Assembly (NCBI GenBank): GCA_050950825.1
Contig: JBMNIH010000007.1
Location: 187,971-251,970, forward strand
Reading direction: 5' to 3'
Length of the DNA: 64,000 bases
DNA from: Clostridia bacterium
GTDB taxonomy: Bacteria; Bacillota; Clostridia; JAAYHZ01
Shown here: piece after piece, positions 13,644 through 41,303 of the stretch
Numbering within the stretch: position 1 is the first letter of the stretch
How the letters are laid out: every line of letters starts with the position of its first letter
Made by a program: the position numbers and the translations under genes
The notes under the pieces: generated by a model
Told to the model about the DNA's origin: nothing
Databases searched by the model: none
What the model saw: only the letters and a program-made list of their open reading frames with translations

Positions 13644-13646
13644 AGC

Positions 13647-14342: not shown

Positions 14343-14453
14343 CGGGAGGTCCGGAAGGAGAAAGCAAAGTTCATGTACAAACCCTTTCCTCTCTGTGCTA
14401 TAATGAGAGATGATGGTCTTCTTGATATCAATGGGTGATAGGAGTGAAACCGT

Positions 14454-15401: not shown

Positions 15402-15456
15402 AAACGTGGTAAAATAAATATCAATAAAATATAAGCATAACAAACGGAGGTAATTT

Positions 15457-18485: not shown

Positions 18486-18583
18486 TAAATTGGGATGACG
18501 CACGATTAAACGAGAGAATACGAGAACTATTCTTTAAAAAACGAAGTATTCGGAAGGTAAATTAAATTTTTAAAAATATACCC

Positions 18584-18612
18584 TTGACACGGAATAATCC
18601 ATATATTAAAAT
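18584..18612 (+). promoter_or_regulatory. Promoter of the rplM-rpsI operon
   Basis: 'ttgaca', a 17-nt spacer, then 'taaaat'. Confidence 0.65.
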
Positions 18613-18660
18613 ACATGAGTGTCCTCGGGCGGGGAGACTAAAATTGATAAGACACCTTGA
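18613..18660 (+). promoter_or_regulatory. Structured 5' leader of rplM (candidate ribosomal protein L13 leader)
   Basis: Helix 'gtgtc...gacac' encloses a 'ctcgggcggggagac' element just before the RBS 'aggagg'. L13 leaders are known in Firmicutes. No covariance model was run. Confidence 0.4.
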
Positions 18661-18674
18661 AGGAGGTTAGATAT

Positions 18675-19103
18675 ATGAAGTCCTACATGGCAAAAGCAGA
18701 AAACATCGAACGCAAGTGGTACGTCATCGATGCGGAAGGCAAGGTATTAGGTAGATTGGCTTCGGAAGTCGCTCGAATTTTAATCGGTAAACATAAACCT
18801 GAATATACTCCTCATGTAGATACCGGTGATTATGTCATCGTTATCAATGCGGACAAGATCCAATTGACCGGCAAGAAGTGGGATCAAAAGACCCATAACT
18901 ATTTTACGGGGTATGTTGGCGGTTATAAAGAAGTGTCCTACAAGCACTTACTGCAAAAAAATCCCGTTAAGATTATCGAACTTGCCGTAAAAGGCATGCT
19001 TCCTAAAAACGCTTTGGGAAGAAAAATGTATAAGAAGCTGAAGGTTTATGCAGGAAATGAGCATCCTCATCAAGCCCAACAACCTCAACCTTGGGAAATA
19101 TGA
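18675..19103 (+). CDS. rplM: 50S ribosomal protein L13
   Basis: '[17 protein letters not shown]' and '[13 protein letters not shown]' are present. RBS 'aggagg' lies 8 nt upstream of the ATG at 18675. Confidence 0.95.
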
Positions 19104-19122
19104 GAAAGGAGGAGTAGCATAA

Positions 19123-19515
19123 ATGGCTAGTGTACAATATTACGGAACCGGAAGAAGAAAAAAATCGGTAGCACGTGTAAGATTGGTACCGGGAGAAGGA
19201 AACTTTGTAATCAATGAACGTTCCTTAGACGAATATTTCGGATTGGAAACGCTGAAGGTTATCGTTAAACAGCCTTTGGTTTTGACCAATACGCTGGACC
19301 GCTTTGATGTTTTGGTTAACGTAAAAGGAGGCGGTTTCACGGGTCAAGCGGGCGCTATTCGCCACGGTATTGCAAGAGCTTTGCTGGAAGCCGACGAAGC
19401 ATACAGACAGCCTTTGAAAAAAGCCGGTTTCTTGACAAGAGATCCGAGAATGAAGGAAAGAAAGAAATACGGTCTCAAGAAAGCAAGAAGAGCTCCTCAA
19501 TTCTCAAAGAGATAA
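19123..19515 (+). CDS. rpsI: 30S ribosomal protein S9
   Basis: '[14 protein letters not shown]', '[19 protein letters not shown]' and the C-terminal '[12 protein letters not shown]' are present. Confidence 0.95.
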
Positions 19516-19528
19516 AAAATTGTTTCAT

Positions 19529-19969
19529 TACACACGAGTTTGTTTACAATTACAAAGTTTGCTTATCGCAAGCGCCAACCGTCAGGGGGGAGAATTCCCT
19601 TTGGCGGTTTTTTGTTGTGTAAAAAAGCATATAAGAATGTATAAATTATTAAATCCGGACGCAGTTTTAATCCCTCGTAAGCCTGTATAATTCGTATGTG
19701 TAGGTGGTTTCGATATTTCCTCCCGTAGGTTATACCCTGCGTATGAATACTCATTACCTTCCACGAGCAAACTTTGTCATTCTTCACTGCTCACGAGCAA
19801 ACTCGCTTGTCATTTTCTCATTTTTTATATCTTTTTTTATATTTTTTAAGGTAATAAAACCCGAGAGCAAACTTTGTCACTACAAGGGAAGAAACAGCGA
19901 GAAGCCTTGCAACAACTACATTTCAACACGAGCAAACTTTGTCACTCCGTGAGCAAACTTATTTGTAAC
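19529..19969. repeat. Cluster of about 18-bp repeats (core AGCAAACTTTGT) at the island border
   Basis: Direct copies lie at 19762-19779, 19792-19812 (variant), 19861-19880, 19927-19945 and 19948-19969 (variant). An inverted copy lies at 19551-19568 and a deleted variant at 19533-19548. Confidence 0.8.
19572..19614 (+). terminator. rpsI terminator
   Basis: 'cgccaa...aggg...ccct...ttggcg' hairpin followed by T7. Confidence 0.7.
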
Positions 19970-20052
19970 TACACATAGTAATAAATAAAAAATGAAATAA
20001 AAATAAGGGTAAATCTCAGAAAAAAATTTCAAATAACCAAACGCCAATATTA

Positions 20053-21444
20053 GATAGTGTCTTGTCAAGTGGTGTAAAATGATTTCTACTTTATCTTCCC
20101 TTCGTTTCATTTATGTAAGATAGCAATCGGAGCTAATGAAAACCCATTAGCCTGTGTAAGCTTTTCCATAGATTCTAAACTGAAGTATCGCCGCCCTACC
20201 TGCCATTCATCGTTCTGCTCCATAAGCATAGTACCTACAAGGCGAATAACGGCATCACGATTAGGAAATATGCATACAACATCAGTCCGACGGCGTATCT
20301 CACGATTAAGCCGTTCCAATGGATTCGTAGAATGAATCTGTATCCAATGCTCACGGGGAAAGGCCATATACGCCAATATATCCTCTTCGGCTGCTTCAAG
20401 GATTTCCATTGCTTTCGGAAAACGCCCCCTCAGTTCATCTACCACATGTCTTAGCTGTTCCCTTGCGGATTCCTGATCATTTTGTGCAAAAATGGTGCGT
20501 ATGATTGAGGAGACCATTCCTTGGCACTTCTTCGGCACTTGGCTTAATACGTTCCGCATAAAATGTACTCGGCATCTTTGCCATGTGCTCCCGGTTAAAA
20601 CCTTCTTTATGGCGGATTTTAACCCCTCATGGGCATCACTTACAACTAACTTCACCCCTTTAAGTCCCCTTGCTACAAGCTTTCTCAGAAACTCTTCCCA
20701 AAAAGCTCCGTCTTCACTCATGCCGACATCAAAACCTAGTATCTCTCGTTCACCGGACTGATTTACACCTACGGCTATTACAAGTGCCATACTGCATACT
20801 CTTCCACCTTCACGAACCTTAGGAAAAGTAGCATCAAGCCAAAGATAAGGGTATTCTCCTTCGAGTATGCGGTTCTTGAACTCGGTGACAAAGCCATCCA
20901 ATTGCTTGCTGATCCCGGAAACTTCGCTTTTATCCATCCCTTTAATTCCGAGAGATTCTACCAACTCATCTACTTTTCTAGTGCTGACACCGTGCACATA
21001 AGCTTCCTGCACCACATTTAATAAAGCTTTTTCTGACATCTTCCGAGGCTCTAATAAACTTGGGAAATAGCTTCCATGCCTCAATTTGGGTATGCTTAAC
21101 TGTAACGTACCAAGGCGAGTATCCCATTCTCTTTGTCGGTATCCATTACGATGATTGTTCCGATTCTCACTTCGTTCATACTTTTCCGCACCGATCATCG
21201 ACGTAACTTCCGCATCCATCAGAGCATTGATTAACAGCGTAAGCGCTTCCTTTAAAAAATCCTTATCTTTTTCAACAACATACTTGCTAAGTTGCTCTAA
21301 AAGTGACATTCTATTTTTAGTAGCCACGGTATGACCTCCTTTACTTTATCTTTTTTGTTTGAATCTAATAAAGTAAAAATCATATCGTGGTTACTCTTGT
21401 CAAGCATACTCCACGAAATTTACACCACTACTTAAGACTATAAC
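20053..21444 (-). mobile_element. IS256-family insertion sequence, copy A (1392 bp)
   Basis: Imperfect terminal IRs: 'GATAGTGTCTTGTCAAGTGGTGTAAAAT' at one end and, reverse-complemented, 'GTTATAGTCTTAAGTAGTGGTGTAAATT' at the other. The same sequence recurs at 46692-48083. Confidence 0.9.
20107..21327 (-). CDS. IS256-family (mutator-type) transposase
   Basis: 406 aa. 'NGYRQREWDTRLGTLQLSIPKLR', 'YLWLDATF' and 'WQRCRVHFMRN' are IS256 transposase hallmarks. Confidence 0.95.
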   Translation of the reverse strand: MATKNRMSLLEQLSKYVVEKDKDFLKEALTLLINALMDAEVTSMIGAEKYERSENRNNHRNGYRQREWDTRLGTLQLSIPKLRHGSYFPSLLEPRKMSEKALLNVVQEAYVHGVSTRKVDELVESLGIKGMDKSEVSGISKQLDGFVTEFKNRILEGEYPYLWLDATFPKVREGGRVCSMALVIAVGVNQSGEREILGFDVGMSEDGAFWEEFLRKLVARGLKGVKLVVSDAHEGLKSAIKKVLTGSTWQRCRVHFMRNVLSQVPKKCQGMVSSIIRTIFAQNDQESAREQLRHVVDELRGRFPKAMEILEAAEEDILAYMAFPREHWIQIHSTNPLERLNREIRRRTDVVCIFPNRDAVIRLVGTMLMEQNDEWQVGRRYFSLESMEKLTQANGFSLAPIAILHK

Positions 21445-21776: not shown

Positions 21777-21818
21777 ATAACCATTTTGTTTATCAACGTA
21801 CAAAACGGTTATTTTTTT
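21777..21818 (+). terminator. Terminator-like hairpin in the long AT-rich region upstream of brxA
   Basis: 13-bp arms 'ataaccattttgt'/'acaaaacggttat' with one mismatch, followed by T7. Confidence 0.5.
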
Positions 21819-22033
21819 GACTCAATTTTCGATGTGCTCCTAAAATATAATGGAAGATTACATCAATGAAAAATCCTATCAAAAATAAATAAAATAGATT
21901 TAATGAGGAAAAAGGAAGAAAAAAATTGAATAAAGGAGATAAAAAATCTAATCACCTAATAATCGCAGTATATCAAGTTTCTATAAGGGGAGGATTTTAT
22001 ATTAAAGAATTAACTCACAATTAATTCTGGTTT

Positions 22034-22066
22034 TTCAATGCATTTATGATTAAATAGTGGTATAAT
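22034..22066 (+). promoter_or_regulatory. Candidate promoter of the BREX operon
   Basis: -10 'tataat' at 22061-22066 preceded by 'tgg' (an extended -10 TGn arrangement). There is only a weak -35-like 'ttcaat'. Confidence 0.4.
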
Positions 22067-22113
22067 GTTTATATAAAAGAATGGCCACGAGAAAGAGGCG
22101 ATGATGGTAAAAC

Positions 22114-22710
22114 ATGTTAGAATATAAGTCAACAATTAAGGCTAGATCTTATCTTTATTTAGAGTTGAAAAAGGCATCAAACCTATACTTACAAGGATTT
22201 TCTATAGATGACATAAGACAAAAAGCATTAGATGAAAATATATTTTCATTAAATTCAGAGAGCAGAATTAAGGAAATTGCTTCAACCGTCTCGGAAAGAC
22301 TAGAAGCCTTGGATGAAATGTTACTTGATAAATTAGTAAATGGAAACCTTGAAACAAGCAAACAGGTAGCCCTATATGCTATTTTGAAAACAGACAGGCT
22401 TTTTTTTGAGTTCATGCAGGAGGTATATAGAGATAAATACCTTATAAGAGATTATTTAATTACAGATAAGGATTTTGCTATTTTCTACCAAAGAAAAGCA
22501 GAACAAAGTCAAAAAGTGGCAGAGTGGAAAGATTATACCTTTTATAAATTAAAGCAGGTTTACAAAAGAATCTTAACTGAAGCCGGATTTGTAAAGAAGA
22601 ATAAAAAAGATGTTGAAATAACCAGACCCTTAATGGAGCAAGAATTAATAGAACATTTAAATGCAAAAGGTGATGGCATATACCTGCAGGCTATGTTAGG
22701 AGGGATATAA
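22114..22710 (+). CDS. brxA: BREX protein BrxA (DUF1819-like)
   Basis: 198 aa and first gene of the cassette. The 'DENIFSLNSESRIKEI...' and 'LFFEFMQEVYRDKY' pattern is typical of BrxA. Confidence 0.8.
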   Translation: MLEYKSTIKARSYLYLELKKASNLYLQGFSIDDIRQKALDENIFSLNSESRIKEIASTVSERLEALDEMLLDKLVNGNLETSKQVALYAILKTDRLFFEFMQEVYRDKYLIRDYLITDKDFAIFYQRKAEQSQKVAEWKDYTFYKLKQVYKRILTEAGFVKKNKKDVEITRPLMEQELIEHLNAKGDGIYLQAMLGGI

Positions 22711-23292
22711 ATGAAGACCATTTATGAAAGGCTTGATGAGATTCTACCTATTATTACAGATAAAAGATTTAGGGAGAACAAAGGATTAGGCAATGAAATA
22801 GGCTACTACATTTTTGATTATGATCCTGAACATGAAATCATTGTTAGAGAACATATAAAGTTCTTAAAGCAGAAAATAAATAATGATGGCATGGATTTTT
22901 CTATTAGAGAAATTGACCTTTATGAAATAATGATTGAAATATTAGCGGAAAAGGGATATTTGAAGAAAGTCTTTGAAATGGAGAAGAAAAAAGGTACAGA
23001 TGCAATCCTTAAGCCTATAAAGAATACTTTAAGACTCACCCAGAAAAATGATTTAGTTGTAGAGTATATCAGGGAAAGAGTACAGGAAAATGATATTGTT
23101 TTCTTAACAGGTGTGGGGAAAATATGGCCAATTATCCGATCTCACACTATTTTAAATGTTCTACATTCTGTAATAGATCATATACCTTTAATCATGTTTT
23201 ATCCTGGGACTTATTCAGGACAAGACTTAAATCTTTTTGATGAAATTTCTGACCAAAACTATTATAGGGCTTTTAAACTGGTAGAAAGATAG
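22711..23292 (+). CDS. brxB: BREX protein BrxB (DUF1788-like)
   Basis: 193 aa, starting immediately after the brxA stop. 'YYIFDYDPEHE', 'GVGKIWPIIRSHTILN' and 'FYPGTYSGQDLNLF...NYYRAF' are present. Confidence 0.9.
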   Translation: MKTIYERLDEILPIITDKRFRENKGLGNEIGYYIFDYDPEHEIIVREHIKFLKQKINNDGMDFSIREIDLYEIMIEILAEKGYLKKVFEMEKKKGTDAILKPIKNTLRLTQKNDLVVEYIRERVQENDIVFLTGVGKIWPIIRSHTILNVLHSVIDHIPLIMFYPGTYSGQDLNLFDEISDQNYYRAFKLVER

Positions 23293-23308
23293 GGGAGGGA
23301 ATTGGACT

Positions 23309-26300
23309 ATGAAATTAAAGAAAATGTTTTATAAGGAAATTGATAGGGATATTAAGGGCGTTATTAAGATTGGACAAGATGATGATACCAATGTTCACCA
23401 AGAGTTGGAGGAATATGTAGTTACTCGAGAATTGGCTAGACATTTTAGCACTTTTTTTGAGGCCTACAGAGAAGCGATTAATAATTATACTGACAAAATG
23501 GGAGTCTGGATATCAGGATTCTTTGGTTCTGGTAAATCCCATTTCTTAAAGATTTTATCTTATCTTCTTGAGAATAAAGAGGTAAAGGGTAAACGTGCTA
23601 TATCCTATTTTGACGATAAAATAGAGGATGCTTCCGTTTTAGCAGATATGAAAGCCTCAGGGGATGTAAGTGCCGATGTTATTTTATTTAACATAGATTC
23701 AAAAGCCGATTCAGATTCTAGAACTAATAAGGAATCAATAGTTAATGTATTCAATAAAGTGTTCAATGAAATGCAAGGTTTCTGCGGATCTTTGCCATGG
23801 CTTGCAGATCTTGAAGCACAAATGGTTAAAGAAGGTTCTTATGAAGCCTTTAAGTCAAGATTTGAGGAATTATCAGGGGAATCATGGATTGAAGCAAGAG
23901 AAGATTTTTATTTTGAAGAAGATAATATAGTTCAGGCACTGGCAGATACAACTAAAATGAGTATAGAAGCAGCCCGAAATTGGTACAACAAGGCTGAAGA
24001 TAACTACTCTTTAAGTGTTGAAAAGTTCGCTAACAAAGTAAAAGAATATATTGAGTCCAAGGACAGAGAGCACCATGTCATCTTTTTGGTGGATGAGATG
24101 GGTCAATACATAGGGGATGATGTAGGTTTAATGCTTAACCTGCAGACAGTTGTTGAAGATTTAGGAACTTATTGTGGGGGTAAAGCGTGGGTTATTGTAA
24201 CCTCACAGCAAGATATAGATACTGTTACGAAGGTAAGGGGTAATGACTTTTCTAAAATCCAAGGTAGATTTAATACAAGGCTTAGTTTATCCAGTGCCAA
24301 CGTGGATGAAGTAATTAAAAGGAGAATCCTTTATAAAAACGAAACCGCTAAAGAGACTTTAAAACTCTACTATGCAGACAAGGAAGCAATTATAAAAAAC
24401 CTTATTACCTTTTCTGCTGATACACCGGAAATGAAAATCTTCAAAACAGCAGAAGACTTTATAGATGTGTATCCCTTTATACCTTATCAATTTAGATTGC
24501 TGCAGTCTGTTTTTACAGCAATTAGACAGCATGGTGCTAGTGGAAAACATCTTTCAGAAGGAGAGAGGTCTCTTTTATCTGCATTTCAAGAGGCTGCTAT
24601 CAAATATATGGATAAAGAAGTGGGAGCATTAGTACCATTTTCCGCATTCTACGAAACTATAGAGACTTTCTTGGATCATAATATCAAGACAGTTTTTATT
24701 CATGCAGAAGATAACGATAGGCTCAGTAGTATGGATGTAGAAGTACTGAAGGTCCTATTTTTAATAAAATGGGTAAAAGAAATGCCAAAGAACTTGGAAA
24801 ACATTGCAACATTAATGGTTTCACATATTGACGAAGACAAAATTGAATTAAAGAAAAAAATAGAAGCCTCTTTAGACAGGCTTGTAAAAGAGACACTGGT
24901 TCAGAAAAATGGAAATGAATATATCTTCTTAACTCATGAAGAACAGGACGTAAATAAAGAAATACAGAATATTTCAATTGATATCAGTGAAATAATACTG
25001 AAGATTGGTGAGGAAATATACACAGGAATTTACAGTGAAAAGAAGTTTCGCTATAACGTTAGATACCATTTTGATTTTAACAAAATCATAGACGATAGGT
25101 ATATGTCCTCCCAAAAACACGATATAGGAGTAAAAATAATTACCCCTTATTATGATACTGGTGTTGAACTTACTGACCATGAATTAAGAATGATGTCAGC
25201 CAGAGAGAATAATCTAATAATCAAACTACCTCAAGATACTTCTTTCCTTGAAGAGATGGAGAATATATTAAAGATACAGACCTACCTTACAAGGAAAGCA
25301 GGGACTATACAAACGGAAGAAATTGAGGAAATAAAGATACGAAAATCAAGAGAAGTTGCTGAGAGAAAGGACAGAGTTGTATCCTTACTTAAGGAAGCAT
25401 TGCAAGAAGCAGACTTCTATGTAAATATGCAAAAAATTGATATAAAATCAAAAAATCCTGTTGAAAGAATAAACAGTGGGTTGAAAATACTTATTGAAAA
25501 TATCTATGACAAGTTAAACTATATTACTGATTTTATTGAAAGCACCAAAGAACTTCATGACCTGCTGTTTGATGAAAATACTCAGATAAATATATTTGGG
25601 GAAGAAGAAATCCCAAACAAACTAGCCATAGATGAGATGCTCCACTATATCGAAAGAAACACCCAACGGCATATTCCTGTAACTATGAAAACTCTATTGG
25701 AACTATATGATAAACCGCCTTATGGCTGGCTGCCAGATGATATCAGGGGGCTAGTGATTAGATTATTTAGAGCACAGGAAATTAAGATACAATTAGGTAG
25801 CGAATATATTAATCCTTCGGATAAAAACCTAATCCAATATATGACGAAAAAAGATTATATAGATAGATTGCTAATAAAGAAAAGAACTAAAACCCCTGAA
25901 AAGTATTTGAATAATGCCAGGATGTTGATTAGAGAAGTTTTCAATTATGCATCAGTGCCAGGGGATGAAGATGGATTAATGATTCGTTTCAAGGAGTTAT
26001 CTAACTATGAATTATCAAATATAAGAGAACTATTAGTCCGTTATGAAGAGAGAAACTATCCCGGCAAAGATGTGTTAGAAAGAGGCAAGAGTCTTTTCGA
26101 GGACATTTTGCAGATTAGTGATGCTACAGCCTTCTTTGAAAAACTATATGAAGTAAAAGAAGAATTAATGGACTATGAGGAAGAAGTTTTTGACGTTAAA
26201 AAATTCTTTAAAAACCAAAAAGAGCAGTTTGATAAAGCCCTTAAACAACTCAATATATATGAAAAGAACAAAACCTATGTTTTAGATCCGGAGACTATAA

Positions 26301-26863
26301 ATATCGTTAAGGAAATAGAAACAATAGTTAAATCACCAAAACCATATAATCAGATTTCAAAACTGCCTAGCCTAATAAATGACTTTGTTGACAAATTTGT
26401 TATGTTGTTAGAAGAAGAGTGCAAACCTGTAAGGGCTGTGATAGAAAGTGATTGGAACAAGGTTAAGGATGAACTTGAATTATATGATTTTAAGGATGAA
26501 TTGGCAGGTGCGTTTAACAATAAGTTTAGGGATCTTTTGGTCAGATTAGATTCATCCCACAATTTCTATGAAGCCATCGCCATGAAGGAAGAGTCAGATA
26601 GGCTGAAAATGAGATGTTTTGAGGAAATTAAAAAAACTGCCTTGGAAAAGAGAAAAAAAAGGGACAGTGAAAAACAACCAGTTACCACTAGGGAAGGCAA
26701 TGGAGTTTATGTTACCAAAAAAACAGTCAATATAAGCATAGCAAATATATTCCATGGAGCAAAAACCATTGAAAGTGAAGAAGATATAGAAGAATTACTT
26801 GATTATTTAAGAAAGCAATTAAAAACGGAACTAAAGGAGAATACCATATTGAAATTAATTTAA
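23309..26863 (+). CDS. brxC: BREX ATPase BrxC/PglY
   Basis: 1184 aa. Walker A 'GFFGSGKSHF' and Walker B-like 'IFLVDEMGQY'. Size and position match BrxC. Confidence 0.9.
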   Translation: MKLKKMFYKEIDRDIKGVIKIGQDDDTNVHQELEEYVVTRELARHFSTFFEAYREAINNYTDKMGVWISGFFGSGKSHFLKILSYLLENKEVKGKRAISYFDDKIEDASVLADMKASGDVSADVILFNIDSKADSDSRTNKESIVNVFNKVFNEMQGFCGSLPWLADLEAQMVKEGSYEAFKSRFEELSGESWIEAREDFYFEEDNIVQALADTTKMSIEAARNWYNKAEDNYSLSVEKFANKVKEYIESKDREHHVIFLVDEMGQYIGDDVGLMLNLQTVVEDLGTYCGGKAWVIVTSQQDIDTVTKVRGNDFSKIQGRFNTRLSLSSANVDEVIKRRILYKNETAKETLKLYYADKEAIIKNLITFSADTPEMKIFKTAEDFIDVYPFIPYQFRLLQSVFTAIRQHGASGKHLSEGERSLLSAFQEAAIKYMDKEVGALVPFSAFYETIETFLDHNIKTVFIHAEDNDRLSSMDVEVLKVLFLIKWVKEMPKNLENIATLMVSHIDEDKIELKKKIEASLDRLVKETLVQKNGNEYIFLTHEEQDVNKEIQNISIDISEIILKIGEEIYTGIYSEKKFRYNVRYHFDFNKIIDDRYMSSQKHDIGVKIITPYYDTGVELTDHELRMMSARENNLIIKLPQDTSFLEEMENILKIQTYLTRKAGTIQTEEIEEIKIRKSREVAERKDRVVSLLKEALQEADFYVNMQKIDIKSKNPVERINSGLKILIENIYDKLNYITDFIESTKELHDLLFDENTQINIFGEEEIPNKLAIDEMLHYIERNTQRHIPVTMKTLLELYDKPPYGWLPDDIRGLVIRLFRAQEIKIQLGSEYINPSDKNLIQYMTKKDYIDRLLIKKRTKTPEKYLNNARMLIREVFNYASVPGDEDGLMIRFKELSNYELSNIRELLVRYEERNYPGKDVLERGKSLFEDILQISDATAFFEKLYEVKEELMDYEEEVFDVKKFFKNQKEQFDKALKQLNIYEKNKTYVLDPETINIVKEIETIVKSPKPYNQISKLPSLINDFVDKFVMLLEEECKPVRAVIESDWNKVKDELELYDFKDELAGAFNNKFRDLLVRLDSSHNFYEAIAMKEESDRLKMRCFEEIKKTALEKRKKRDSEKQPVTTREGNGVYVTKKTVNISIANIFHGAKTIESEEDIEELLDYLRKQLKTELKENTILKLI

Positions 26864-26880
26864 GTTGAGGAGGGGATATA

Positions 26881-29800
26881 GTGGATAAAACAGCCATTAG
26901 AAACTTTGCGGTAAAAGCAAGGCGTAAACTAATAGAAGATATAACCCATAAGGCCTATGAGATAGGGATAACAAAAGATAAAATCTTAGATATTGAAACC
27001 TTTGAGGGTGGTTTTAGAGTAAAGGGTAGAGAAAACGGCAAAACCTTTAAGAAATATGAATTAAAGCAGCGTAATAAGTTGATTCAAAATATTAAACATA
27101 AAGGCTTTGAGCAAGTTATAGAAGAGGTTGCCTATACATGGTTTAACCGTTTTATTGCTCTGCGTTTTATGGAAGTTAACAACTATCTTCCTACTGGGGT
27201 TAGGGTATTATCCTCAATAGAAGAAGGTAAGACTGAGCCTGATATTATCCAAGAGGCTCTAAACATAGACTTAGATCTTGATCCTGAAATAGTGTATAGA
27301 CTTCAAGACAGTAACGATACAGAGGATTTATATAGATATTTGTTAGTTAAGCAATGCAATCAATTAGGAAAAATTATGCCTAATGTTTTTGAGGAAATCG
27401 CTGATTATACAGAATTACTCCTTCCTGACAAACTTCTTGCTGAAGGTTCTGTAATTAGAGATTTAGTGGAAGAAATAGAGGAATATGATTGGAAAATAGA
27501 ACTGAATGAGGAAGAACAGAAGCGGGAACCAGAAAAGGGAGAACACGGTATAGAAATTATTGGTTGGCTATATCAGTATTATATTTCTGAAAAGAAAGAC
27601 GAAGTTTTTGCTGGCCTTAAAAAGAATAAGAAGATTACCAAGGAAAATATTCCTGCTGCCACCCAACTCTTTACACCTAAATGGATAGTAAAGTATATGG
27701 TAGAGAATTCATTAGGCAGGCTATGGCTGGAATCTCATCCAAATGATCAATTAAAGGCTCAATGGAAATATTATTTGAAAGAAGCCGAACAAGAACCGGA
27801 AGTTCAAAAACAATTAGATGCACTCAAAGACCCCAACTTAAATCCAGAAGATATTAAGGTATTGGATCCTGCCATGGGTAGTGGCCATATTTTAGTTTAT
27901 GCTTTTGATGTTCTATATGAAATATACCTATCTACAGGTTATTCAGAAAGGGAAATACCCACTCTTATATTGGAAAAAAACCTTTATGGTCTTGATATAG
28001 ACGATCGTGCAGGCCAATTAGCCACTTTTGCCATTTTAATGAAGGCAAGAAGTAAAAATAGAAGGATTTTTAGACACAAATCAAGGATGAACTTGTGCTC
28101 CATTCAGGAAAGTAACCATATTCCTAAAGAGGCTATCGAATATTTGGTTAATCCAAAAGAGACTGAACTAGAAAAACATATTCACAGGGAGGACGTTGAA
28201 TACCTAATAGAAGTTTTTCATGATGCAAAAGAATATGGCTCAATTTTAGATGTGAAAAAAATAGATTTTGACGCTTTAGAAAAAAGGATTGAAGAGATAA
28301 GGAATAATGTTCCAGAAGACCTATTTGAACTGCAATATAGAGAGATAATATTAGAAAAAATTCCACCATTGATTCAACAGGCAAAGATAATGAGTCAAAA
28401 ATATGATGTTGTGTGTACAAATCCGCCGTATATGGGGAATAGGGGGATGAATTCTAAACTATCAAAATACATAGGTCAACATTTTCCAAACACAAAAACT
28501 GATTTTTTCGCAGTATTTATAGAAGTATGTGGTGCTTATACACGAGCCAGGGGATTGTTTTCATTGATTACACAGCCTACATGGTTGTTTTTAAGTGCTT
28601 TTGAAAAATTAAGAAAAAGTATAATTGAAAACAAGTCTATTTGTAGTCTTCTACACATAGGGAGAGGTATTTTTGGAATAGATTGGGGATCAGTTGCCTT
28701 TACATTAAGAAACATACTGGTAAATAATTATTATGGTCAATATTTTAGGCTACATACGAGGCTATTCCAGTATATAGATCCAAATGATATAAAAGACTTG
28801 TTTTTAAAAGCCAAGAATGACCATAGTTTTAAATTCAATTTTGATAACTATGGAAACAATTCTGAATTATTTAATGATGGCAAATTAAGAATGATAGGTG
28901 ACTGCAATGGTCAAAAAATACACTACATTTATAATCAAGAAAACTTTAAGTTAATTCCAGGATACCCTATTGCGTATTGGGCAAATTCTAACCTACTTGA
29001 TGCATTTAGATCTAAAAAAATTATATCTAAAATTGCCATACCAAGAACAGGTATTATGACTGGAGATAATGCTAGATTTTTACGATTATGGTGGGAGCCT
29101 TACTATGGTAAATTAAACTTGGATGCAAAAGACTATGAAAGTGCGATAAAATCAAAATTAAAATGGTATCCATATAACAAGGGGGGAGATTTTAGGAGAT
29201 GGTATGGAAATAATGAATATGTAGTTAATTGGGAAAATGGAGGATATGAAATATTTGGGTGTGCAAAATTAGATAGCCGAAACTCACAGGACTATCCAAA
29301 CGAACTTAAATTTAAAAGGGCAATTTCATGGGCACTAGTATCATCTAAGAAACCATCTTTTAGAATAATCAATAACAGTTTATCAGATATTGGTGGGCCT
29401 TCCTTGTTTGTAAGTAGTAATAATTTATATTATATTTTGGCATTTTGTAATTCATTAATAGCCATAGAAATATTAAATATATTAAATCCAACAGTAAACT
29501 TTCAAGCAGGGAATATAGGAAATTTACCAATAATTTTAAATAAGGACAATTTTCATGTTGTTACTTCAAATGCTATGCAGAATATAAGAATTTCACAACA
29601 AGACTGGGATTCTTTTGAAACCTCATGGGATTTCAAAGTACACCCATTAGCAAACTTTAATAAGTACATGGATAATTATTATGATACCTTATTAGAATCA
29701 GGTATATTGGCTGATAAGGAGCCTATATATGTAGCCAATTTGGAACATGCCTATGAACAATATAAAGAATTTACTGAGGTTCAATTCAACCAACTTAAAT

Positions 29801-30150
29801 CCAACGAAGAAGAACTAAACCGTATTTTCATTGAAATCTATGGTCTCCAGGACGAACTAACTCCTGATGTAGATGACAAAGACGTAACTATTACAAGGAT
29901 ATATGATTCTAAAGAAGATATCCCAGAGTGTATGAAGGGAAATAAATATGTACTTACAAGGGAAGATGTAATAAAATCCTTTATCTCTTATGCTGTTGGC
30001 TGTATGTTTGGACGCTACTCTTTAGATGAAGAAGGTCTAATCTATGCTGGTGGAGATTTTGATGACAAGTTTAGGTTGCGTGATGGACAATGGGAGATTA
30101 AGACTAAAGAAGGTTGGAAAAAGTCGATCGATAAACATAGTAGAACATAA
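26881..30150 (+). CDS. pglX: BREX adenine methyltransferase PglX, N-terminal 1089-codon segment (gene interrupted by a frameshift)
   Basis: SAM motif '[12 protein letters not shown]' and catalytic 'TNPPY' (28419-28430). The frame terminates at 30148-30150 while homology continues in the +1 frame. Confidence 0.9.
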
Positions 30151-30622
30151 TGTTATTCCTATTGCTGATGGAGATTATTTTGAAGATGGTATACTGGAGC
30201 GTTTTGTAGACTTTGTAAAGGTATCTTTTGGTGAAGAAACATTGGAGGAGAATCTAGATTACATTGCTGAAACTTTAGGTAGGAAGGCCAATGAAACTTC
30301 AAGACAGGCTATTAGAAGATACTTCTTAAAAGATTTCTATAAAGACCATGTAAGAACATATAAAAGTCGTCCTATTTACTGGCTCTTTGATAGTGGAAGA
30401 CAGGACGGGTTTAAAGCCCTTATTTACATGCACCGTTACGAGCCTTCTACTGTTGCAAGGGTGAGGACCGATTATTTGCATAGTTTGCAGAAAAAGTATG
30501 AAGCAGAAATAAACCATCTTGATATTTTAATAGATTCGGATATCTCTCAAAGGGAAAAGGCTGCTGCAAGGAAAAAGAAAGAGACAATTTTAAAGCAGAT
30601 TGAGGAATGCAGGATTATATGA
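30044..30622 (+). pseudogene. pglX: pglX middle segment (frame +1 relative to the N-terminal segment)
   Basis: '[25 protein letters not shown]...[24 protein letters not shown]' is the conserved PglX C-terminal region. It is not an independent gene. Confidence 0.85.
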
Positions 30623-30770
30623 TGAGGCTATAGCCCATGTGGCCAATCAAAGAATTGAGATTGATTTAGATGATGGCGTAAAAGTTAATTATGCTAAATT
30701 CCAAGGGGTTGAGATTCCTCAAGGTAAAGGCAGAAAGCCACTAAAAGCAGATTTATTAGCAAAGATATAA
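30618..30770 (+). pseudogene. pglX: pglX C-terminal segment (a second +1 shift)
   Basis: It translates to '[50 protein letters not shown]', the canonical PglX tail, in the third frame. Confidence 0.85.
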
Positions 30771-30783
30771 AGTAGGTGAACAT

Positions 30784-33339
30784 ATGAATTTTTTAGAAGT
30801 TAAAAAGAGGTTAGAGGAAATCTTTAATAAAGAACCTATGGATGGGAAAAAGAGACATATAGTTTTTTGGTATGATGATGAGGGAGAATTCATTGAAGAC
30901 ATTAACGAACTTAAACTAGATAATGCCAAGATTCTCAAACTTGCTGATAATAATTCTTTCTATATAAAGTATCTTCTTGAAAAAGAAGATATTGAATCTA
31001 ATTATCTTTTATATTCTCCTTCATCTAAACCAATACCACGGGATAATTGGGTGTTGGATATTCTGAAATATAGTGAGGAGTTTTCAACTGACAAGGCAAC
31101 TTTAATTATGAGGGACTTCAAGGTGGAAGATCCCTCATTAAGAAATGTGTTTAAGGGATATTTAAAGTTCTTTGGAAATAAAGAGAGATATAAAAAATTT
31201 GCCTCATACAATATAGATAAATTTACTAAAGAAAAGGTAGATATAGCAGTTCTATCTGCTCTACGCAGATTACCCGTAGCAGATTTTGAACAAGTTGTAA
31301 AAAAGATTCTGATTGAAGAATTAGAAGGAGAGAACAAATATCTAGAGGCTATTGAGAACGTTGGTAATATAGATGCCTTTTGGGATTTAGTTGAGAAAAG
31401 ATATGGTTATAATTTCGAGGAGAGATCATTAGAAAAATTAACGATTATGCTTCTTGTTACTCATTTATCCTATACTCTCGAAGAGGATATGCCAACTACA
31501 TGGGTAGAGTATGTATCTCCTAAAAGATCAGATTCTGTAGTGTTTATAAGTAATTTTATGAATCATGCTACCGACGGTAAATACTATGATTTATTGGCGG
31601 ATAAAGTCCAAGAGACATTAAATGTAAGAGTGTATTTAAATAAATGGGATATAGATAAGTATATTGAATGTGATACATTTAGGGCTTTTGATGAAGCAAT
31701 AATGGAAAGGATAATTGGCAACTTAGTAGAAGGTGTCGGAGAATTTGAAAGATACCGTAAACTGATTAATAGAAGAAGGACAAGTCATTGGTTTAAAACC
31801 TATAGAAACGAATATGAAGCCCTATATTTTGCTAATGAACTCCTTGAAATGGAAAAGAGAATGGGTGGAGTTATTAGAGGTGGATCTGCCTATGATTTGA
31901 TCAATGCTTATGTTAAAGAATATTATCTGTTTGATTATTTCTATCGGAAGTTTTATTACTATTACGATAAAATTACTGACAAAGATCCATTTGAAAAACT
32001 AGCAGAGAGAATTGAAAACACCTATACTCACTGGTATCTAAACGAACTTTCAATAAAATGGTCTGCAGCGGTTCAGGAGGAATTACTAGAAGACTACTCT
32101 TTGGCAGGTATTAGGCAGCAAAAAGATTTTTATAAAGACTTTGTTTTGCCATTTATAAGGAATAATGAAAGATTATTTGTAATTATTTCTGATGCTTTAA
32201 GATATGAAGCAGCAAGAGAACTCCTTAATCTAATTAATAAAGAGGTGAGGGGTATGGCAGAGATTGGCTTTATGCAAGGAGTCATCCCTTCAAATACAAA
32301 ATATGGTATGGCAAGTTTGCTTCCAAGAAAGGAATTGGTAGTCAATGATAAATCAGATATTATTATTGACGGTATAAGCACCCAGGGGACAGTAAATAGG
32401 GGGAAAATAATCGCCAATTATAGTGATAATGCTCAGGCAATATCATTTAGTGACATGGTAGATATGCGTAGGGCAGATTACAAGAAAGCCTTTGAAGGGA
32501 AAAAACTAATTTATATATACCATGACACAATAGATGCCGTTGGGGAAGTGCCTCAGACGGAAAGAGAGGTTTTTGATGCCGTAGAAAAGGGTTTTGAAGA
32601 TTTAGTATCGCTAATCAAAAACCTAATAAACCATGTAAGTGCTACAAACATAATAATTACTGCAGATCATGGTTTCATATACAGACGTTCTCAATTAACA
32701 GAAGTAGACAAGATTAGCAGATTTAATGCTGAAACCATAGATGCCGGCAGGAGATATATGCTTGCAGAAATTGATGAAGATATTCCAGATACATTACCTA
32801 TTTCTATGAAATATCTTTTGGGACAGGAGACAAAATTAAAAGCCATTGTTCCAAAAGGCATGATTAGATACAAGGTTCAAGGGGCAGGAGCAAATTATGT
32901 CCATGGAGGAGCATCTTTGCAGGAGATAATTGTTCCTGTAATAAGATTTAAGAATATCCGTAAAGATGAGTATAAAGCCACTAAGGTCGAAGTGAAGTTA
33001 ACCAATATTTCAAGGAAGATTACAAATAGAATCACCTATTTGGAGTTTTTCCAAACAGAAGTGGTAGACGAAAAGAAAGTGCCATTAAAACTAAAACTTT
33101 ATTTTGTAGATAAAGAAGGTAACCGTATCTCTAATGAAAACATTATAATTGCTGATAGTAGGTCGAAAAATCCTGAGGATCGAACCTTTAGGGAGAAGTT
33201 TACATTAAGAGATATGGCTTATGACAAGAACAAGGAATATTATTTAATTTTAGAAGATGAAGATGAAACCGTAGAAAAAATATATGAGCGAATACCTTTT
33301 AAGATAGATTTGCTATTTACAGATGACTTTGGTTTATAG
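30784..33339 (+). CDS. pglZ: BREX alkaline-phosphatase-family protein PglZ
   Basis: 851 aa. N-terminal 'IVFWYDDEGEF' and the PglZ-domain region 'FVIISDALRYEAA...ITADHGF' are present. Confidence 0.9.
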   Translation: MNFLEVKKRLEEIFNKEPMDGKKRHIVFWYDDEGEFIEDINELKLDNAKILKLADNNSFYIKYLLEKEDIESNYLLYSPSSKPIPRDNWVLDILKYSEEFSTDKATLIMRDFKVEDPSLRNVFKGYLKFFGNKERYKKFASYNIDKFTKEKVDIAVLSALRRLPVADFEQVVKKILIEELEGENKYLEAIENVGNIDAFWDLVEKRYGYNFEERSLEKLTIMLLVTHLSYTLEEDMPTTWVEYVSPKRSDSVVFISNFMNHATDGKYYDLLADKVQETLNVRVYLNKWDIDKYIECDTFRAFDEAIMERIIGNLVEGVGEFERYRKLINRRRTSHWFKTYRNEYEALYFANELLEMEKRMGGVIRGGSAYDLINAYVKEYYLFDYFYRKFYYYYDKITDKDPFEKLAERIENTYTHWYLNELSIKWSAAVQEELLEDYSLAGIRQQKDFYKDFVLPFIRNNERLFVIISDALRYEAARELLNLINKEVRGMAEIGFMQGVIPSNTKYGMASLLPRKELVVNDKSDIIIDGISTQGTVNRGKIIANYSDNAQAISFSDMVDMRRADYKKAFEGKKLIYIYHDTIDAVGEVPQTEREVFDAVEKGFEDLVSLIKNLINHVSATNIIITADHGFIYRRSQLTEVDKISRFNAETIDAGRRYMLAEIDEDIPDTLPISMKYLLGQETKLKAIVPKGMIRYKVQGAGANYVHGGASLQEIIVPVIRFKNIRKDEYKATKVEVKLTNISRKITNRITYLEFFQTEVVDEKKVPLKLKLYFVDKEGNRISNENIIIADSRSKNPEDRTFREKFTLRDMAYDKNKEYYLILEDEDETVEKIYERIPFKIDLLFTDDFGL

Positions 33340-33363
33340 AATTACAAAGGTGGTGAAAAGGCA

Positions 33364-35406
33364 GTGGACAGGGAGAATAGAGATTTAAATGAAAAATTGA
33401 ACAAATATTTTCCAGGCAGAGTTGTCCGTAAGGATTTGACTCAAAAAATAAAGGAAGGGGCCAATGTACCAGTATATGTCCTTGAATATTTACTTGGTAT
33501 GTACTGTGCTACTGATGATGAAGATTCCATAAATGAAGGAGTAAATAGAGTAAAAGCAATACTTGCAGAAAATTATGTAAGGCCCGATGAAGCGGAAAAG
33601 ATTAAATCTAAAATTCGAGAATTAGGCCAGTATACAGTTATTGATAAACTGACAGTAAGGCTAAATGAAAAAAGAGACATTTATGAGGCGGAGTTTTCTA
33701 ATTTAGGGTTAAAAGGTGTAGAAGTAGAAGCAGATTATGTTAAAAAATTTGAGAAACTTCTTGCTGGAGGTATATGGTGTATTCTTAAAATACAATACTA
33801 TTATGATGAAGAGTTAAGAAATGCTAACCCTTTTATCATAAATAGTTTGAAGCCCATCCAAATTCCAAACTTGGATATGGATGAGATATTGAATGGAAGA
33901 AAACATTTCACCAAAGATGAATGGATTGATATCCTTTTAAGATCCGTGGGCATGGAACCTACACAATTGGAGGAAAAAGTTAAGTGGCACCTTCTTGCTC
34001 GCATGATTCCTCTTGTTGAGAATAATTATAATCTTTGTGAGTTAGGGCCAAGAGGGACAGGTAAATCACATATATATAAGGAAATATCACCTAACTCTAT
34101 TCTAATATCCGGTGGGCAAACTACTGTAGCCAATTTATTTTACAATATGAATACCAGAAAAATCGGATTAGTTGGCTTATGGGATGTAGTAGCATTTGAT
34201 GAAGTGGCTGGAATTACCTTTAAAGATAAAGACGGCATTCAGATTATGAAGGATTATATGGCTTCAGGCTCATTTGCCAGAGGAAAAGAATTAAAAAATG
34301 CTTCTGCTTCTATGGTTTTTGTTGGTAATATCAATCAATCAGTGGACGTTCTTTTAAAAACATCCCATTTATTTGAACCATTCCCAGAAGCAATGGCTTA
34401 TGACACGGCTTTTTTTGACAGGATGCACTGTTATATTCCCGGCTGGGAGATACCTAAATACAGACCGGATTTTTTCACTCACGAATATGGCTTTATTACT
34501 GATTATATTGCAGAATTTTTCAGGGAAATGAGAAAAACATCCTATGGCGACAGCATAGATAAATACTTTAGACTTGGAAATAACCTTAATCAAAGAGATG
34601 TTATAGCGGTAAGAAAGACTGTATCGGGATTGGTCAAACTAATTTATCCTCATGGAGAATTTAACAAAGAAGATATAGAAGAAATCCTAAGGTATGCCTT
34701 AGTTGGAAGAAGACGAGTAAAAGAACAATTAAAGAAAATTGGTGGTATGGAATTTTATGATGTTCATTTTTCTTACATAGATAATGAAACATTTGAGGAA
34801 GAATTTGTATCGGTTCCAGAACAGGGTGGCGACAAACTGATACCTGAAGGAATGGGAAAACCAGGACATATATACACAGTTGCCCATGGTGATTCAGGGA
34901 TGATTGGAGTATATAAAATAGAAACCGAGGTTGTCTCTGGAACAGGAAAATTTGAAAGAACAGGATTGGGGACTAGCAGGGAAGCAAAAGAGAATTTGAA
35001 TACAGCCTTCAACTATTTTAAAGCAAACAAAAAGAATATCAGTGGAACAATTTCCTTAAACAATAATGATTTTTTAATGCATGTTCAAGATTTACAGGGA
35101 ATTGGTATGACTTCTCAATTGACATTAGCAGCCTTTATTGCCCTTTGTTCTGGAGCATTAAAAAAACCTGTATTAAGTCAATTGGTGGTATTAGGGTCAA
35201 TGAGCATAGGGGGAACCATTAATAAGGTGGAGGAACTGGCATCCACACTTCAAGTTTGTTTTGATGCAGGAGCGAAAAAAGTACTCCTACCTATGGCTTC
35301 TGCCGCAGACATTAACACAGTTCCGCCAGAATTATTCTCTAAATTTCAGATATCCTTTTATCAAAGCCCTGAAGATGCGGTATTTAAAGCATTAGGAGTT
35401 GAGTAA
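33364..35406 (+). CDS. brxL: BREX Lon-like protease BrxL
   Basis: 680 aa, GTG start after RBS 'ggtggtga'. 'FPGRVVRKDL', the AAA motif 'GPRGTGKSH' and a Lon-protease-like C-terminus are present. Confidence 0.9.
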   Translation: MDRENRDLNEKLNKYFPGRVVRKDLTQKIKEGANVPVYVLEYLLGMYCATDDEDSINEGVNRVKAILAENYVRPDEAEKIKSKIRELGQYTVIDKLTVRLNEKRDIYEAEFSNLGLKGVEVEADYVKKFEKLLAGGIWCILKIQYYYDEELRNANPFIINSLKPIQIPNLDMDEILNGRKHFTKDEWIDILLRSVGMEPTQLEEKVKWHLLARMIPLVENNYNLCELGPRGTGKSHIYKEISPNSILISGGQTTVANLFYNMNTRKIGLVGLWDVVAFDEVAGITFKDKDGIQIMKDYMASGSFARGKELKNASASMVFVGNINQSVDVLLKTSHLFEPFPEAMAYDTAFFDRMHCYIPGWEIPKYRPDFFTHEYGFITDYIAEFFREMRKTSYGDSIDKYFRLGNNLNQRDVIAVRKTVSGLVKLIYPHGEFNKEDIEEILRYALVGRRRVKEQLKKIGGMEFYDVHFSYIDNETFEEEFVSVPEQGGDKLIPEGMGKPGHIYTVAHGDSGMIGVYKIETEVVSGTGKFERTGLGTSREAKENLNTAFNYFKANKKNISGTISLNNNDFLMHVQDLQGIGMTSQLTLAAFIALCSGALKKPVLSQLVVLGSMSIGGTINKVEELASTLQVCFDAGAKKVLLPMASAADINTVPPELFSKFQISFYQSPEDAVFKALGVE

Positions 35407-38836: not shown

Positions 38837-39453
38837 TTAACATCGCAAGGAAAAAGCGAGAATACTATCAATAGTTATTATTTGCATATAAAAGGTTACC
38901 ACCAATGGTATTTGGTATCCTTTGGCAGAGAATGTTCGGTGCTATACCGGGAAAACATCTTAGATTATATCAGTTATCTTCGTAATATTAAGAAAGATAC
39001 TGGTAGAACAATAAATTGCAAGATTAGTGCATTGATAAAGTATAATGAATTTTTGATTGAGAAAGGAATACAGCAAGACCAAGTAGTTTCAAAGAAAGAT
39101 AATATTAATGTACAGCAGACATATGCAAACCCTTCGGATATAACTAAACAGGAAGTAGATGCTTTTAGACAACAACTATTAGAGAATGGGCATCGAGATA
39201 TTTATTGTTTGGCCACATTATTAGCATATGCAGGTTTAAGAATTAGTGAAGCACTTAATATTCAGTTAACAGACTTCAATTTAACAGTTGGAGAGTTAAA
39301 GGTTAGGGGTAAGGGAGATAAAGATAGAGTTGTTTATTTAAATGATAAGATTATTAATAGTATAAGTGAGTTCTTAAGAGTGAGAGAAAGTGAAAGTCCG
39401 TATTTATTTGCAAATAGTAATGGAAAGATAATTCATAGGTCAACAGTTAATAA
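38837..39453 (+). pseudogene. Tyrosine recombinase, N-terminal/core part (5' end missing, 3' part displaced by IS4)
   Basis: The frame is open right from the transposon border with no start codon. 'ENTINSYYLHIKGYHQWYL' and 'ILDYISYL' form a SAM-like core-binding domain. 'LLAYAGLRISEAL' contains the catalytic Arg. Confidence 0.8.
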
Positions 39454-41072
39454 CTCAAACTTCGCAGTAAATTAATATAATAAATTCCTAGATAATTTAA
39501 TATAAGCTTTTTAAGTAATATATGTAACTAAGCGACTTTTGACTTGGGTAATCTTAGTTTTAAATATTCAGGAAGTCTAGAAATGAAAATTCTAAGAAAC
39601 CCATTTACTCGCTTATCATCAATCATGAAATACTCCATTAAGCATTCTGACAGTATTTCGAGAATCAGTTGTATTACTTCATCGAACTTTATGTCTTGCA
39701 ATTCATCGTAGCATAAATAAAACAACTCACCTATAGTTCGATTATCCATATTGTTCCGATTTTCTATTGCCAGCATGATATACCTACTGAGGACTACTGC
39801 GGTATGAGCCGTCATCATATCATATGACAAGCCTTGAAACTCTCTACCTAAATTGAGATATGTCTTGCACATTTTATAGAAAACTTCTATATCCCAACGT
39901 TTGCCATACGTTTGAATTATTTGCTCTTCCGAAAGCGCCAAATCGGTTGAAATGATGGCTATCCATTTCTTCCTGTTATTCCGATCCCGTACGAATACAA
40001 TGCGAGCATCCATAGTCTCTTCTTCTTTGTTGTGAATGGATACGACAACCGACAAAAGGTATTTGGAACGACCACGTCTCTTTTTTTGAGAATTATAGAT
40101 TTCCTTAAGGGTCATTTTCTTTCCGTTAAAGGAATACTTGATATTAGGAGTATCTTTAAGCCGCCCGATGCTGTGAAGCTTCAACTTCGCAATGTCCATG
40201 AGTATTGCAGGATAGGAAAACCAACTGTCGAACAGCACGTGCTTTGCAGGTATGTGTTGCTCGACTGCTTGCCGAAGCATCGCTATCATTAAATCAGGGG
40301 CTTTCTGCATGGCTTGCATTCTTCGTTTGTATCCATTGGTGTTTTTATGGATATCATCTCTCATTTTACACAAATGTTTTTCAACTTTGCCGGATGTGAG
40401 CAAACAAAAATTAAACGGAATAAGTGTGTTGCCATCTGACCATGCAAGAGTAAGCAACCTGAATCCTTTTTTACACTTGTTGTCGGTATGATCTCTGACA
40501 AACGAAAGCATCTCTACACATTTGCTTCGTAAACGGCCGTAGAAGGTATCATCTACAACAATGACATTAATACGGTCATCCGATGTCAAATCCTTTACAT
40601 GGCTGTTTATAACCGTGGATGCCAATGTCATAACAAATGTCTGCCAGTTAATATATATAGAGTTTAGGAAACGATATACAGTATCTTTTTTAAAATCGAC
40701 ATTTTTGTCTCTGTTGCTGTCTTTATTTTTTATCAGGTTCATATACATACTTCTGTTTGTGAAAACCAATTGAAACAAATAGAGAAAAATTTGAATTACC
40801 GGTACACCTCTTTTTTTATAAGCATTGGCATGTTGCAGAGCTTGATAAATTTTAAACTTTCTAAAAAAAAGATTGATTCTATCGTTAAACTGCTTTTCTT
40901 CGATATAATTTTCCGGTATACTATTCATGGCAAGGGGCTCCTTCGTTGTGATATTATGTTTTATTTGTTAATTAATATTATACCACAATCCAGGTCTCCT
41001 TGTCATACTTTTTTGCACTAAACTATTGAATTATCTAGGTTCGAACGCACTTTTTCAAGTGCGAAGTTTGAG
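39454..41072 (-). mobile_element. IS4-family insertion sequence (1619 bp)
   Basis: Terminal IRs 'CTCAAACTTCGCAGT' and, reverse-complemented, 'CTCAAACTTCGCACT'. Flanked by a direct TTAATAA duplication (39447-39453 and 41073-41079). Confidence 0.9.
39528..40928 (-). CDS. IS4-family DDE transposase
   Basis: 466 aa. 'VVDDTFYGR' and the Y-x2-R-x3-E-x6-K signature in 'YGKRWDIEVFYKMCK'. Confidence 0.85.
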   Translation of the reverse strand: MNSIPENYIEEKQFNDRINLFFRKFKIYQALQHANAYKKRGVPVIQIFLYLFQLVFTNRSMYMNLIKNKDSNRDKNVDFKKDTVYRFLNSIYINWQTFVMTLASTVINSHVKDLTSDDRINVIVVDDTFYGRLRSKCVEMLSFVRDHTDNKCKKGFRLLTLAWSDGNTLIPFNFCLLTSGKVEKHLCKMRDDIHKNTNGYKRRMQAMQKAPDLMIAMLRQAVEQHIPAKHVLFDSWFSYPAILMDIAKLKLHSIGRLKDTPNIKYSFNGKKMTLKEIYNSQKKRRGRSKYLLSVVVSIHNKEEETMDARIVFVRDRNNRKKWIAIISTDLALSEEQIIQTYGKRWDIEVFYKMCKTYLNLGREFQGLSYDMMTAHTAVVLSRYIMLAIENRNNMDNRTIGELFYLCYDELQDIKFDEVIQLILEILSECLMEYFMIDDKRVNGFLRIFISRLPEYLKLRLPKSKVA

Positions 41073-41269
41073 TTAATAAGATTTTTAATAAATATAGTGA
41101 TAAGATCACGCCTCATGCATTGCGACATTATTTTTGCACGATTGCTTTGGAGGGCGGGCTATCAGTTCATGAGGTTGCCTATTTGGCAGGCCATAGCAAT
41201 ATTCACACTACGCTTATATATTTGAATCCGAGTAGAGAGGCAATTAGGGGAAAAATAAATAACCTGTAA
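41073..41269 (+). pseudogene. Tyrosine recombinase, C-terminal catalytic part
   Basis: Removing the IS and one TSD copy joins '...HRSTVN' in frame to 'KIFNKYSDKITPHALRHYF...LAGHSNIHTTLIYL' (the H-x-x-R, H and Y catalytic residues). Confidence 0.85.
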
Positions 41270-41303
41270 TTAAAGGGGTGCTTTGGCCCCTTAAAATTGG
41301 ACA

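Follow-up and report, generated by a model that had tools for sequence, protein, structure and literature searches.

Does a BREX cassette whose pglX gene runs through three reading frames still protect its host, has it been silenced for good or reversibly, or is the split an error of the assembly? We addressed this question in a 64,000-nt stretch of a Clostridia bacterium genome (hereafter, the window), starting from the anatomy of the cassette and then comparing the interrupted gene with its closest relatives and with PglX proteins of known structure.

A type 1 BREX cassette with pglX in three frames

Pfam and PADLOC matches for six of six genes identified a type 1 BREX cassette in the order brxA-brxB-brxC-pglX-pglZ-brxL, all on the forward strand at 22114-35406. 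Five genes are intact and span their profiles end to end, namely brxA (22114-22710, 198 aa; Pfam BrxA, E 3.9e-60, and the whole PADLOC BrxA profile), brxB (22711-23292, 193 aa; Pfam BrxB and PADLOC BrxB positions 2-191 of 193), brxC (23309-26863, 1184 aa, a length as in relatives; PADLOC BrxC positions 1-1189 of 1190, 1529 bits), pglZ (30784-33339, 851 aa; PADLOC PglZ positions 1-854 of 855) and brxL (33364-35406, 680 aa; PADLOC BrxL positions 3-680 of 680, with Pfam BrxL_N, BrxL_ATPase and Lon_C). The sixth gene, pglX, is spread over three frames at 26881-30770 on the same strand, and the cassette therefore lacks a full set of intact genes. PglX is the methyltransferase and specificity subunit of type 1 BREX, and it is needed for both BREX methylation and BREX defence.

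The first pglX fragment (26881-30150, +) begins at a GTG codon preceded by the ribosome-binding site GAGGAGGGG and encodes 1089 aa, the last part of which consists of seven out-of-frame codons before a TAA at 30148-30150. It contains the N-terminal domain, the methyltransferase core (NPPY), the target-recognition domain and the first part of the C-terminal domain, and it matches the Pfam families Eco57I, N6_Mtase and MmeI_Mtase. The second fragment lies in the +1 frame of the same strand, with PglX homology from about 30127 to 30622 inside an ORF at 30044-30622 that ends in a TGA at 30620-30622; in the alignment to 9ewz BrxX it is equivalent to residues ~994-1159. The third fragment (30618-30770 within an ORF at 30600-30770, +, +2 frame) carries the conserved tail. 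The three ORFs match successive parts of one PADLOC PglX profile, PDLC02521, at positions 1-968 (1202.6 bits), 975-1134 (E 1.7e-72) and 1135-1166 (E 1.1e-12). Likewise, a tblastn search with the intact relative P0121 returned three HSPs in three frames, covering aa 1-1082, 1073-1245 and 1231-1295, the last of which corresponds to the third fragment. A match of this kind is far beyond chance. These results confirm the first-pass annotation in its description of PglX homology running through three frames, of two independent +1 insertions splitting the gene, and of a 1089-aa product that retains the whole methyltransferase core; the core is of the gamma-class N6-adenine type (Eco57I, N6_Mtase, motif TNPPYMG). 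Coding sequence for the C-terminal domain is present as well, but from the counterpart of BrxX residue ~994 onward it is out of frame. No other obviously split long ORF was seen in the window.

The insertions lie outside the A5 run and outside repeats

The first shift had been attributed to an extra A in the A5 run at 30118-30122 (+), which was proposed to act as an on/off switch. A comparison of tract lengths among relatives, suggested at the time, gave no polymorphism: the run is A5 in 14/14 sequences covering it, that is, in the window and 13 related loci, intact 1295-aa alleles included. Since the DNA of every intact orthologue compared reads GGTTGGAAAAAGTC, with A5 as in the window, five is the wild-type length and the run is neither the lesion nor a switch. 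Instead, DNA alignments placed frameshift site 1 at 30124-30130 (+), 2-8 nt downstream of the run, where the window reads TCGATCG and is one base too long. In the nearest intact allele this stretch is TCATCT, and relative to it the window shows +G at 30126 and T>G at 30130; more distant orthologues have TCGAGAG. In their wider context these are TCGATCGATAAAC for the window (13 nt), TCATCTATAAAC for the nearest intact allele and TCGAGAGTAAAC for more distant alleles. Intact orthologue proteins read EGWKKSRVNIVEHNV across site 1 in 40 fetched homologues, with an alternative reading in others; the peptide obtained earlier by shortening the run to A4 is thus not the one that intact genes encode.

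Frameshift site 2 lies at 30614-30617 (+), where one extra A is present in AGGATTATAT; the nearest intact allele has AGGATTTAT, and other orthologues have AGGTTATAT or AGGCTTTAT. Here the alignment to intact PglX orthologues agreed with the original placement of the second shift in AGGATTATATGAT (30611-30623), a stretch that is not a homopolymer, while for site 1 it moved the lesion out of the A5 run. Neither site falls in a homopolymer or tandem repeat (TCGATCG at site 1, ATTATAT at site 2).

Near-identical relatives encode an intact PglX

The exact PglZ protein of the window is on record in 12 metagenome contigs, and through it we found ten JGI metagenome contigs (L083-L092) that share 99.6-99.9% identity with the window along 5-17.8 kb. 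Both insertions are absent from 10/10 of these contigs, and three of them (L083, L084 and L087) encode an intact PglX of 1295 aa (P0121), exactly the length expected after taking two bases out of the window gene. Within its 90%-identity cluster the 1089-aa form occurs once only, on one 307-kb NCBI contig. In a search of 5.8 billion proteins, the best 120 homologues are, bar three, single proteins of ~1180-1440 aa covering at least 98% of the repaired query; the three shorter entries (1126-1188 aa) cover 91-93% of it.

Exact look-up of the window pglX fragments returned nothing on record. A homology search with the 192-aa second-frame ORF retrieved only ordinary C-terminal PglX fragments starting at an internal Met, none with a window-type junction. 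Sequence of the window type or of its nearest relatives at sites 1 and 2 had zero matches in metagenome and genome contigs and so gave no independent sighting of the lesion; evidently this lineage is missing from those collections. The target-recognition domain was found on one short species-representative contig only (L003), which ends before both sites.

Compared with the intact genes of L084 and L089, the window shows only 8 differences in 852 nt, two of which are the +1 insertions. This is the pattern of a recent pseudogene, in which a disabling lesion stands against near-identical intact orthologues and the rest of the sequence is highly conserved. Over the 17.8 kb shared with L084, the other indels are confined to the intergenic stretch 21800-22105. 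Because these match a real haplotype, that of the more distant contig L001, the assembly is not noisy with random indels. At 21792-22113, upstream of brxA, 27 positions differ from the near-identical contigs, 12 of them indel columns, and the window equals L001 at 26/27 of these, every one of the 12 indel columns among them. Haplotypes have therefore exchanged the BREX promoter region.

These comparisons also bear on whether full-length PglX might still be made, either through slippage in the A5 run or through +1 ribosomal frameshifting at both sites. All that speaks for such a mechanism is that the frames join on paper. The invariance of A5 among intact alleles argues against slippage, as does the length of the run, since known slippage tracts are much longer than five adenines. 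For programmed recoding, a three-frame organisation shared by orthologues had been named beforehand as the telling sign, and it was found in none of the 10 near-identical contigs and in none of the 120 listed homologues; without conservation of the layout, recoding lacks support. Moreover, no prfB-type slippery motif could be read at either site. With both indels outside hypermutable repeats and present in no relative, phase variation by a repeat at the lesion sites does not hold either, and we regard this whole family of explanations as scarcely credible.

The truncation removes the metal site and DNA-contacting residues

The repaired PglX matches Salmonella PglX (8C45, E 1.9e-224) and E. coli BrxX (9EWZ, E 4.7e-220). 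In the C-terminal alignment (BrxX 946-1188), site 1 corresponds to about BrxX residue 994 and site 2 to about residue 1159, and the region lost from the 1089-aa product aligns with E. coli BrxX residues ~994-1205, or ~214 residues of the C-terminal domain. In PMC11842806, this domain of BrxX comprises residues 838-1205; D997, D999, I1001, D1012 and Y1113 form a metal site; the K1076E/K1077E substitution abolishes defence; and the positively charged groove in which R1145 and K1152 hold the 3′ tail of the DNA is called essential for stable binding. By alignment, the equivalents of the metal site, of K1076/K1077 and of R1145/K1152 all lie past the premature stop of the window. Because both BREX activities depend on PglX and the lost part holds the metal site and the DNA-contacting residues, we infer that BREX does not work in this genome, with methylation and defence most likely both lost. 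The earlier proposal of a probably silenced BREX thus gains support: pglX is broken, and the C-terminal region used in defence is lost.

A different outcome would be a separation of function, in which the 1089-aa PglX still methylates host DNA together with BrxB, BrxC and PglZ and defence alone is lost (R- M+). In favour of this, neither the SAM-binding and NPPY core nor the target-recognition domain is damaged, and some C-terminal variants of Salmonella PglX keep methylation and lose restriction (Wozniak 2023, as cited in PMC12707154 and PMC11842806), which also weighs against a complete loss of methylation. However, those variants are point or scanning mutants and not a truncation of ~214 residues, and the truncation would remove the metal-binding core and the positively charged groove for the DNA 3′ tail (PMC11842806). 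Retained methylation by the truncated protein therefore seems very improbable.

A recent loss of function probably explains the split gene

The reading that we favour, with a probability of roughly 60%, is a recent and ordinary loss of function of pglX that silences an otherwise intact BREX cassette. Two single-base insertions, neither in a repeat, would displace the reading frame, first at 30124-30130 and then at 30614-30617; translation would stop at 30148-30150; and the predicted product, which keeps the methyltransferase core and the target-recognition domain, would be missing the final ~214 residues of the conserved C-terminal domain and leave BREX off. The other five BREX genes would still be intact because the event in pglX is recent.

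This reading presupposes that the insertions are real, which we infer from the comparisons above. The lesion is seen in one assembly only, and two consensus errors could produce it. The real genome would then carry an intact pglX, with the extra bases introduced by sequencing or polishing, for example if one consensus was built from two pglX 3′ alleles present together. The window does resemble, at both sites, a hybrid of two allele types present in the gene pool, as a mixed-strain consensus could in principle generate: site 1 interleaves the natural types TCGAGAG and TCATCT into TCGATCG, and site 2 interleaves AGG-TTATAT and AGGATT-TAT into AGGATTATAT. The window also has the consensus-type base at all five flanking SNPs, and in these communities related alleles are clearly found together and exchange sequence. 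On the other hand, the two sites are not homopolymers, comparison with the near-identical contigs over 17.8 kb gave no further coding indel, and the densely polymorphic stretch at 21792-22113 is cleanly of one haplotype and not a hybrid. At each site the two natural alleles have the same length, which by argument makes a +1 through simple column voting or heteroduplex repair less likely, and the second parental allele that a mixture requires was found in no collection searched. We therefore consider an artefact unlikely, though it is the strongest competitor of the reading that we favour.

The distribution of differences also speaks against two independent random hits. Between the window and L089 there are nine differences over 11.4 kb, and eight of them lie within 29979-30617, an interval of 640 bp at the 3′ end of pglX (binomial estimate about 1e-9); such clustering points to recombination or a local process. 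At the five SNPs in this interval the window agrees with the outgroups L001 and L002, and it is the ten contigs that are derived; in the direction from the window to the ten contigs, 4/5 of these changes, plus the G>T at 30130, run from GC to AT. The cluster suggests either a tract of recombination or a pseudogene that was repaired. For the C-terminal module of PglX the alleles visibly form a recombining pool, in which SSIN/SRVN, D/G, Q/E and I/L states are shuffled. As to the ancestral state of the window versus its intact relatives, parsimony is tied at site 1 and at site 2 depends on an unsampled ancestor. Three histories fit these data: the ten contigs may have received a recombination patch, with the window separately gaining two insertions; a window-like pseudogene may be ancestral, with the intact contigs repaired; or the window consensus may have been built over an allele mixture. 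A diversity-generating retroelement was also considered for the A-to-N pattern of the SNP cluster and was set aside, as the window contains no second pglX copy or cassette, whether of the shufflon, inversion or DGR-template type.

Further variants of pglX and a possible reversible inactivation

Further variation of the same allele was seen in a G6 run at 29181-29186 (+; codons AAG GGG GGA), which lies in the conserved PYNKGG motif of the target-recognition domain and is in frame in the window. The run is G6 in the window and 12 loci. In L085 it is G7 (7619-7625), and pglX is split there into 771 + 443 aa; in the Logan fragment P0131 a tail in the -1 frame implies G5, and the frame is again broken. 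This length variation is suggestive only as a sign of slippage. The same motif carries G7 in frame in Acetivibrio saccincola and G8 in L116, and most other alleles avoid the run.

Other sister contigs differ from the window in their own ways. L086 has a TAC>TAA nonsense change at the equivalent of 30262. L001, which was the closest relative in our first protein search (98% protein identity), has an in-frame deletion of 321 nt in the same C-terminal region of pglX, and its pglZ and brxL calls are shortened (13537-15955). L092 has an inverted join inside brxL (5065-6268); in L093 the brxC call is a single product of 804 aa that includes a reverse-transcriptase (RVT_1) domain; and in L093-L095 pglX abuts unrelated genes. 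The rearrangements in L001 and L092-L095 may be either real decay or chimeric assemblies. The truncated forms P0125, P0126 and P0127 were not counted as further lesions, because their pglX is joined to unrelated DNA (L093-L095) and may be chimeric. PglX could have been hit repeatedly in this population, and we do not lean on the sister-contig lesions because several of these contigs (L092-L095) show chimera-like joins.

PglX alleles are also mosaic. Across the homologues P0002-P0120, the N-terminal ~560 aa and the C-terminal ~300 aa are 90-100% identical in several Clostridia genera, and the target-recognition domain in the middle is swapped; overall identity to P0002 is 75%, and in that domain identity to the next relatives is only about 40%.

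One might then ask whether the window represents the 'off' state of a pglX that cycles under fluctuating selection, with the intact near-identical alleles being revertants through one-base compensatory deletions or recombinational repair. Deleting G30126 from the window gives TCATCGATAAAC (K-K-S-S-I-N), and deleting A30617 gives exactly the AGGATTTAT of the relatives. At all five neighbouring SNPs the outgroup state is in the window and the derived state in the relatives, and both frameshift sites lie inside the tract of differences (29979-30617). The same allele is damaged otherwise in sister contigs (G6 to G7, G6 to G5 and the TAC>TAA nonsense change), and the literature describes pglX disruption as frequent (PMC9122589, citing Goldfarb 2015) and documents G-tract phase variation (PMC4365076). 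Against such cycling, two separate compensations would be needed to restore function; the SSIN motif together with the N and D states also occurs in allele P0132, so these may be recombination imports; the direction of change needs an outgroup with an intermediate sequence; and amplification or assembly may have produced the sister-contig lesions artificially, given the inverted join in L092 and the pglX of L093-L095 joined to unrelated DNA. We think it improbable that the window is such an 'off' state. The broader proposal is that pglX of this Clostridia lineage is a recurrent, reversible target, with the window 'off', the intact alleles restored by compensatory deletions or by a patch exactly at both insertion sites, the G6 run adding slippage, and BREX toggled without a dedicated switch; this we hold to be rather doubtful. 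Recent loss of function remains our preferred account of the window.

The island around the cassette

Three ORFs of equal length (406 aa) lie on the reverse strand at 5011-6231, 20107-21327 and 46746-47966. The one at 20107-21327, the only one of the three that was scanned, is a Mutator/IS256-family transposase directly upstream of the BREX cassette, and the near-identical metagenome contigs break at about this transposase. Downstream of the cassette, a XerC-like integrase (38882-39475) is cut short by the insertion of a DDE transposase (39528-40928), which is the decay noted elsewhere in the island by the first-pass annotation; in L083 the sequences at 38837-39450 and 41071-41276 of the window are contiguous, and the integrase there has 287 aa. 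L083 carries a CBASS-like pair downstream of BREX (17312-20079), consisting of a DncV-like nucleotidyltransferase and an E2/ThiF protein, and the window has a Tn-like rve/TniB-like module at that place; the right flank of the island is therefore variable. The BREX island lies directly downstream of rplM-rpsI both in the window (18657-19515) and in Acetivibrio saccincola (L002 1-726). The ribosomal genes of the two are only 84% identical, whereas the BREX genes are 93-96% identical, which points to a common integration spot or to horizontal exchange of the BREX cassette.

Meaning and comparison with known systems

For annotation, the locus is best called an inactive BREX or a pseudogene and should not be counted as a working defence, and the idea of an A-tract switch is best not carried forward. 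Provided that the insertions are real, one expects this strain to show no BREX methylation motif and to admit the phages and plasmids that BREX would exclude. The wider point, that pglX is the weak link of BREX, is modest and known in outline; the sister contigs hint, without proof, at repeated damage to the same pglX allele in one population.

The window resembles the type 1 systems of PglX/BrxX with known structures (E. coli HS BrxX, PDB 9EWZ/8ZEK; Salmonella PglX, PDB 8C45) in having the same six-gene cassette in the same order. It differs from them in that the gene is interrupted twice, its product ending near the equivalent of BrxX residue 994, and in that its target-recognition domain is another allele, only about 40% identical to the next-best relatives. 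Disruption of pglX in BREX is a kind of finding that is already known: PMC9122589, citing the BREX survey of Goldfarb 2015, records disrupted pglX genes in BREX loci, and the window shares with them a damaged pglX in an otherwise complete locus; it differs in having no duplicated pglX cassette and no recombinase-linked inversion partner. In the Pgl system of Streptomyces coelicolor (BREX type 2), pglX phase-varies by a G tract (Sumby & Smith 2003, as cited in PMC4365076). The likeness is inactivation by frameshift, and the window allele also has a G run (G6, 29181-29186) that varies between assemblies; however, the two lesions of the window lie outside this run or any repeat, and G6 is shorter than classical contingency tracts. 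Finally, the Salmonella PglX mutants (Wozniak 2023, as cited in PMC12707154 and PMC11842806) resemble the window in that the damage is confined to the C-terminal region, but they are non-toxic point or scanning variants, whereas the window loses about 214 residues.
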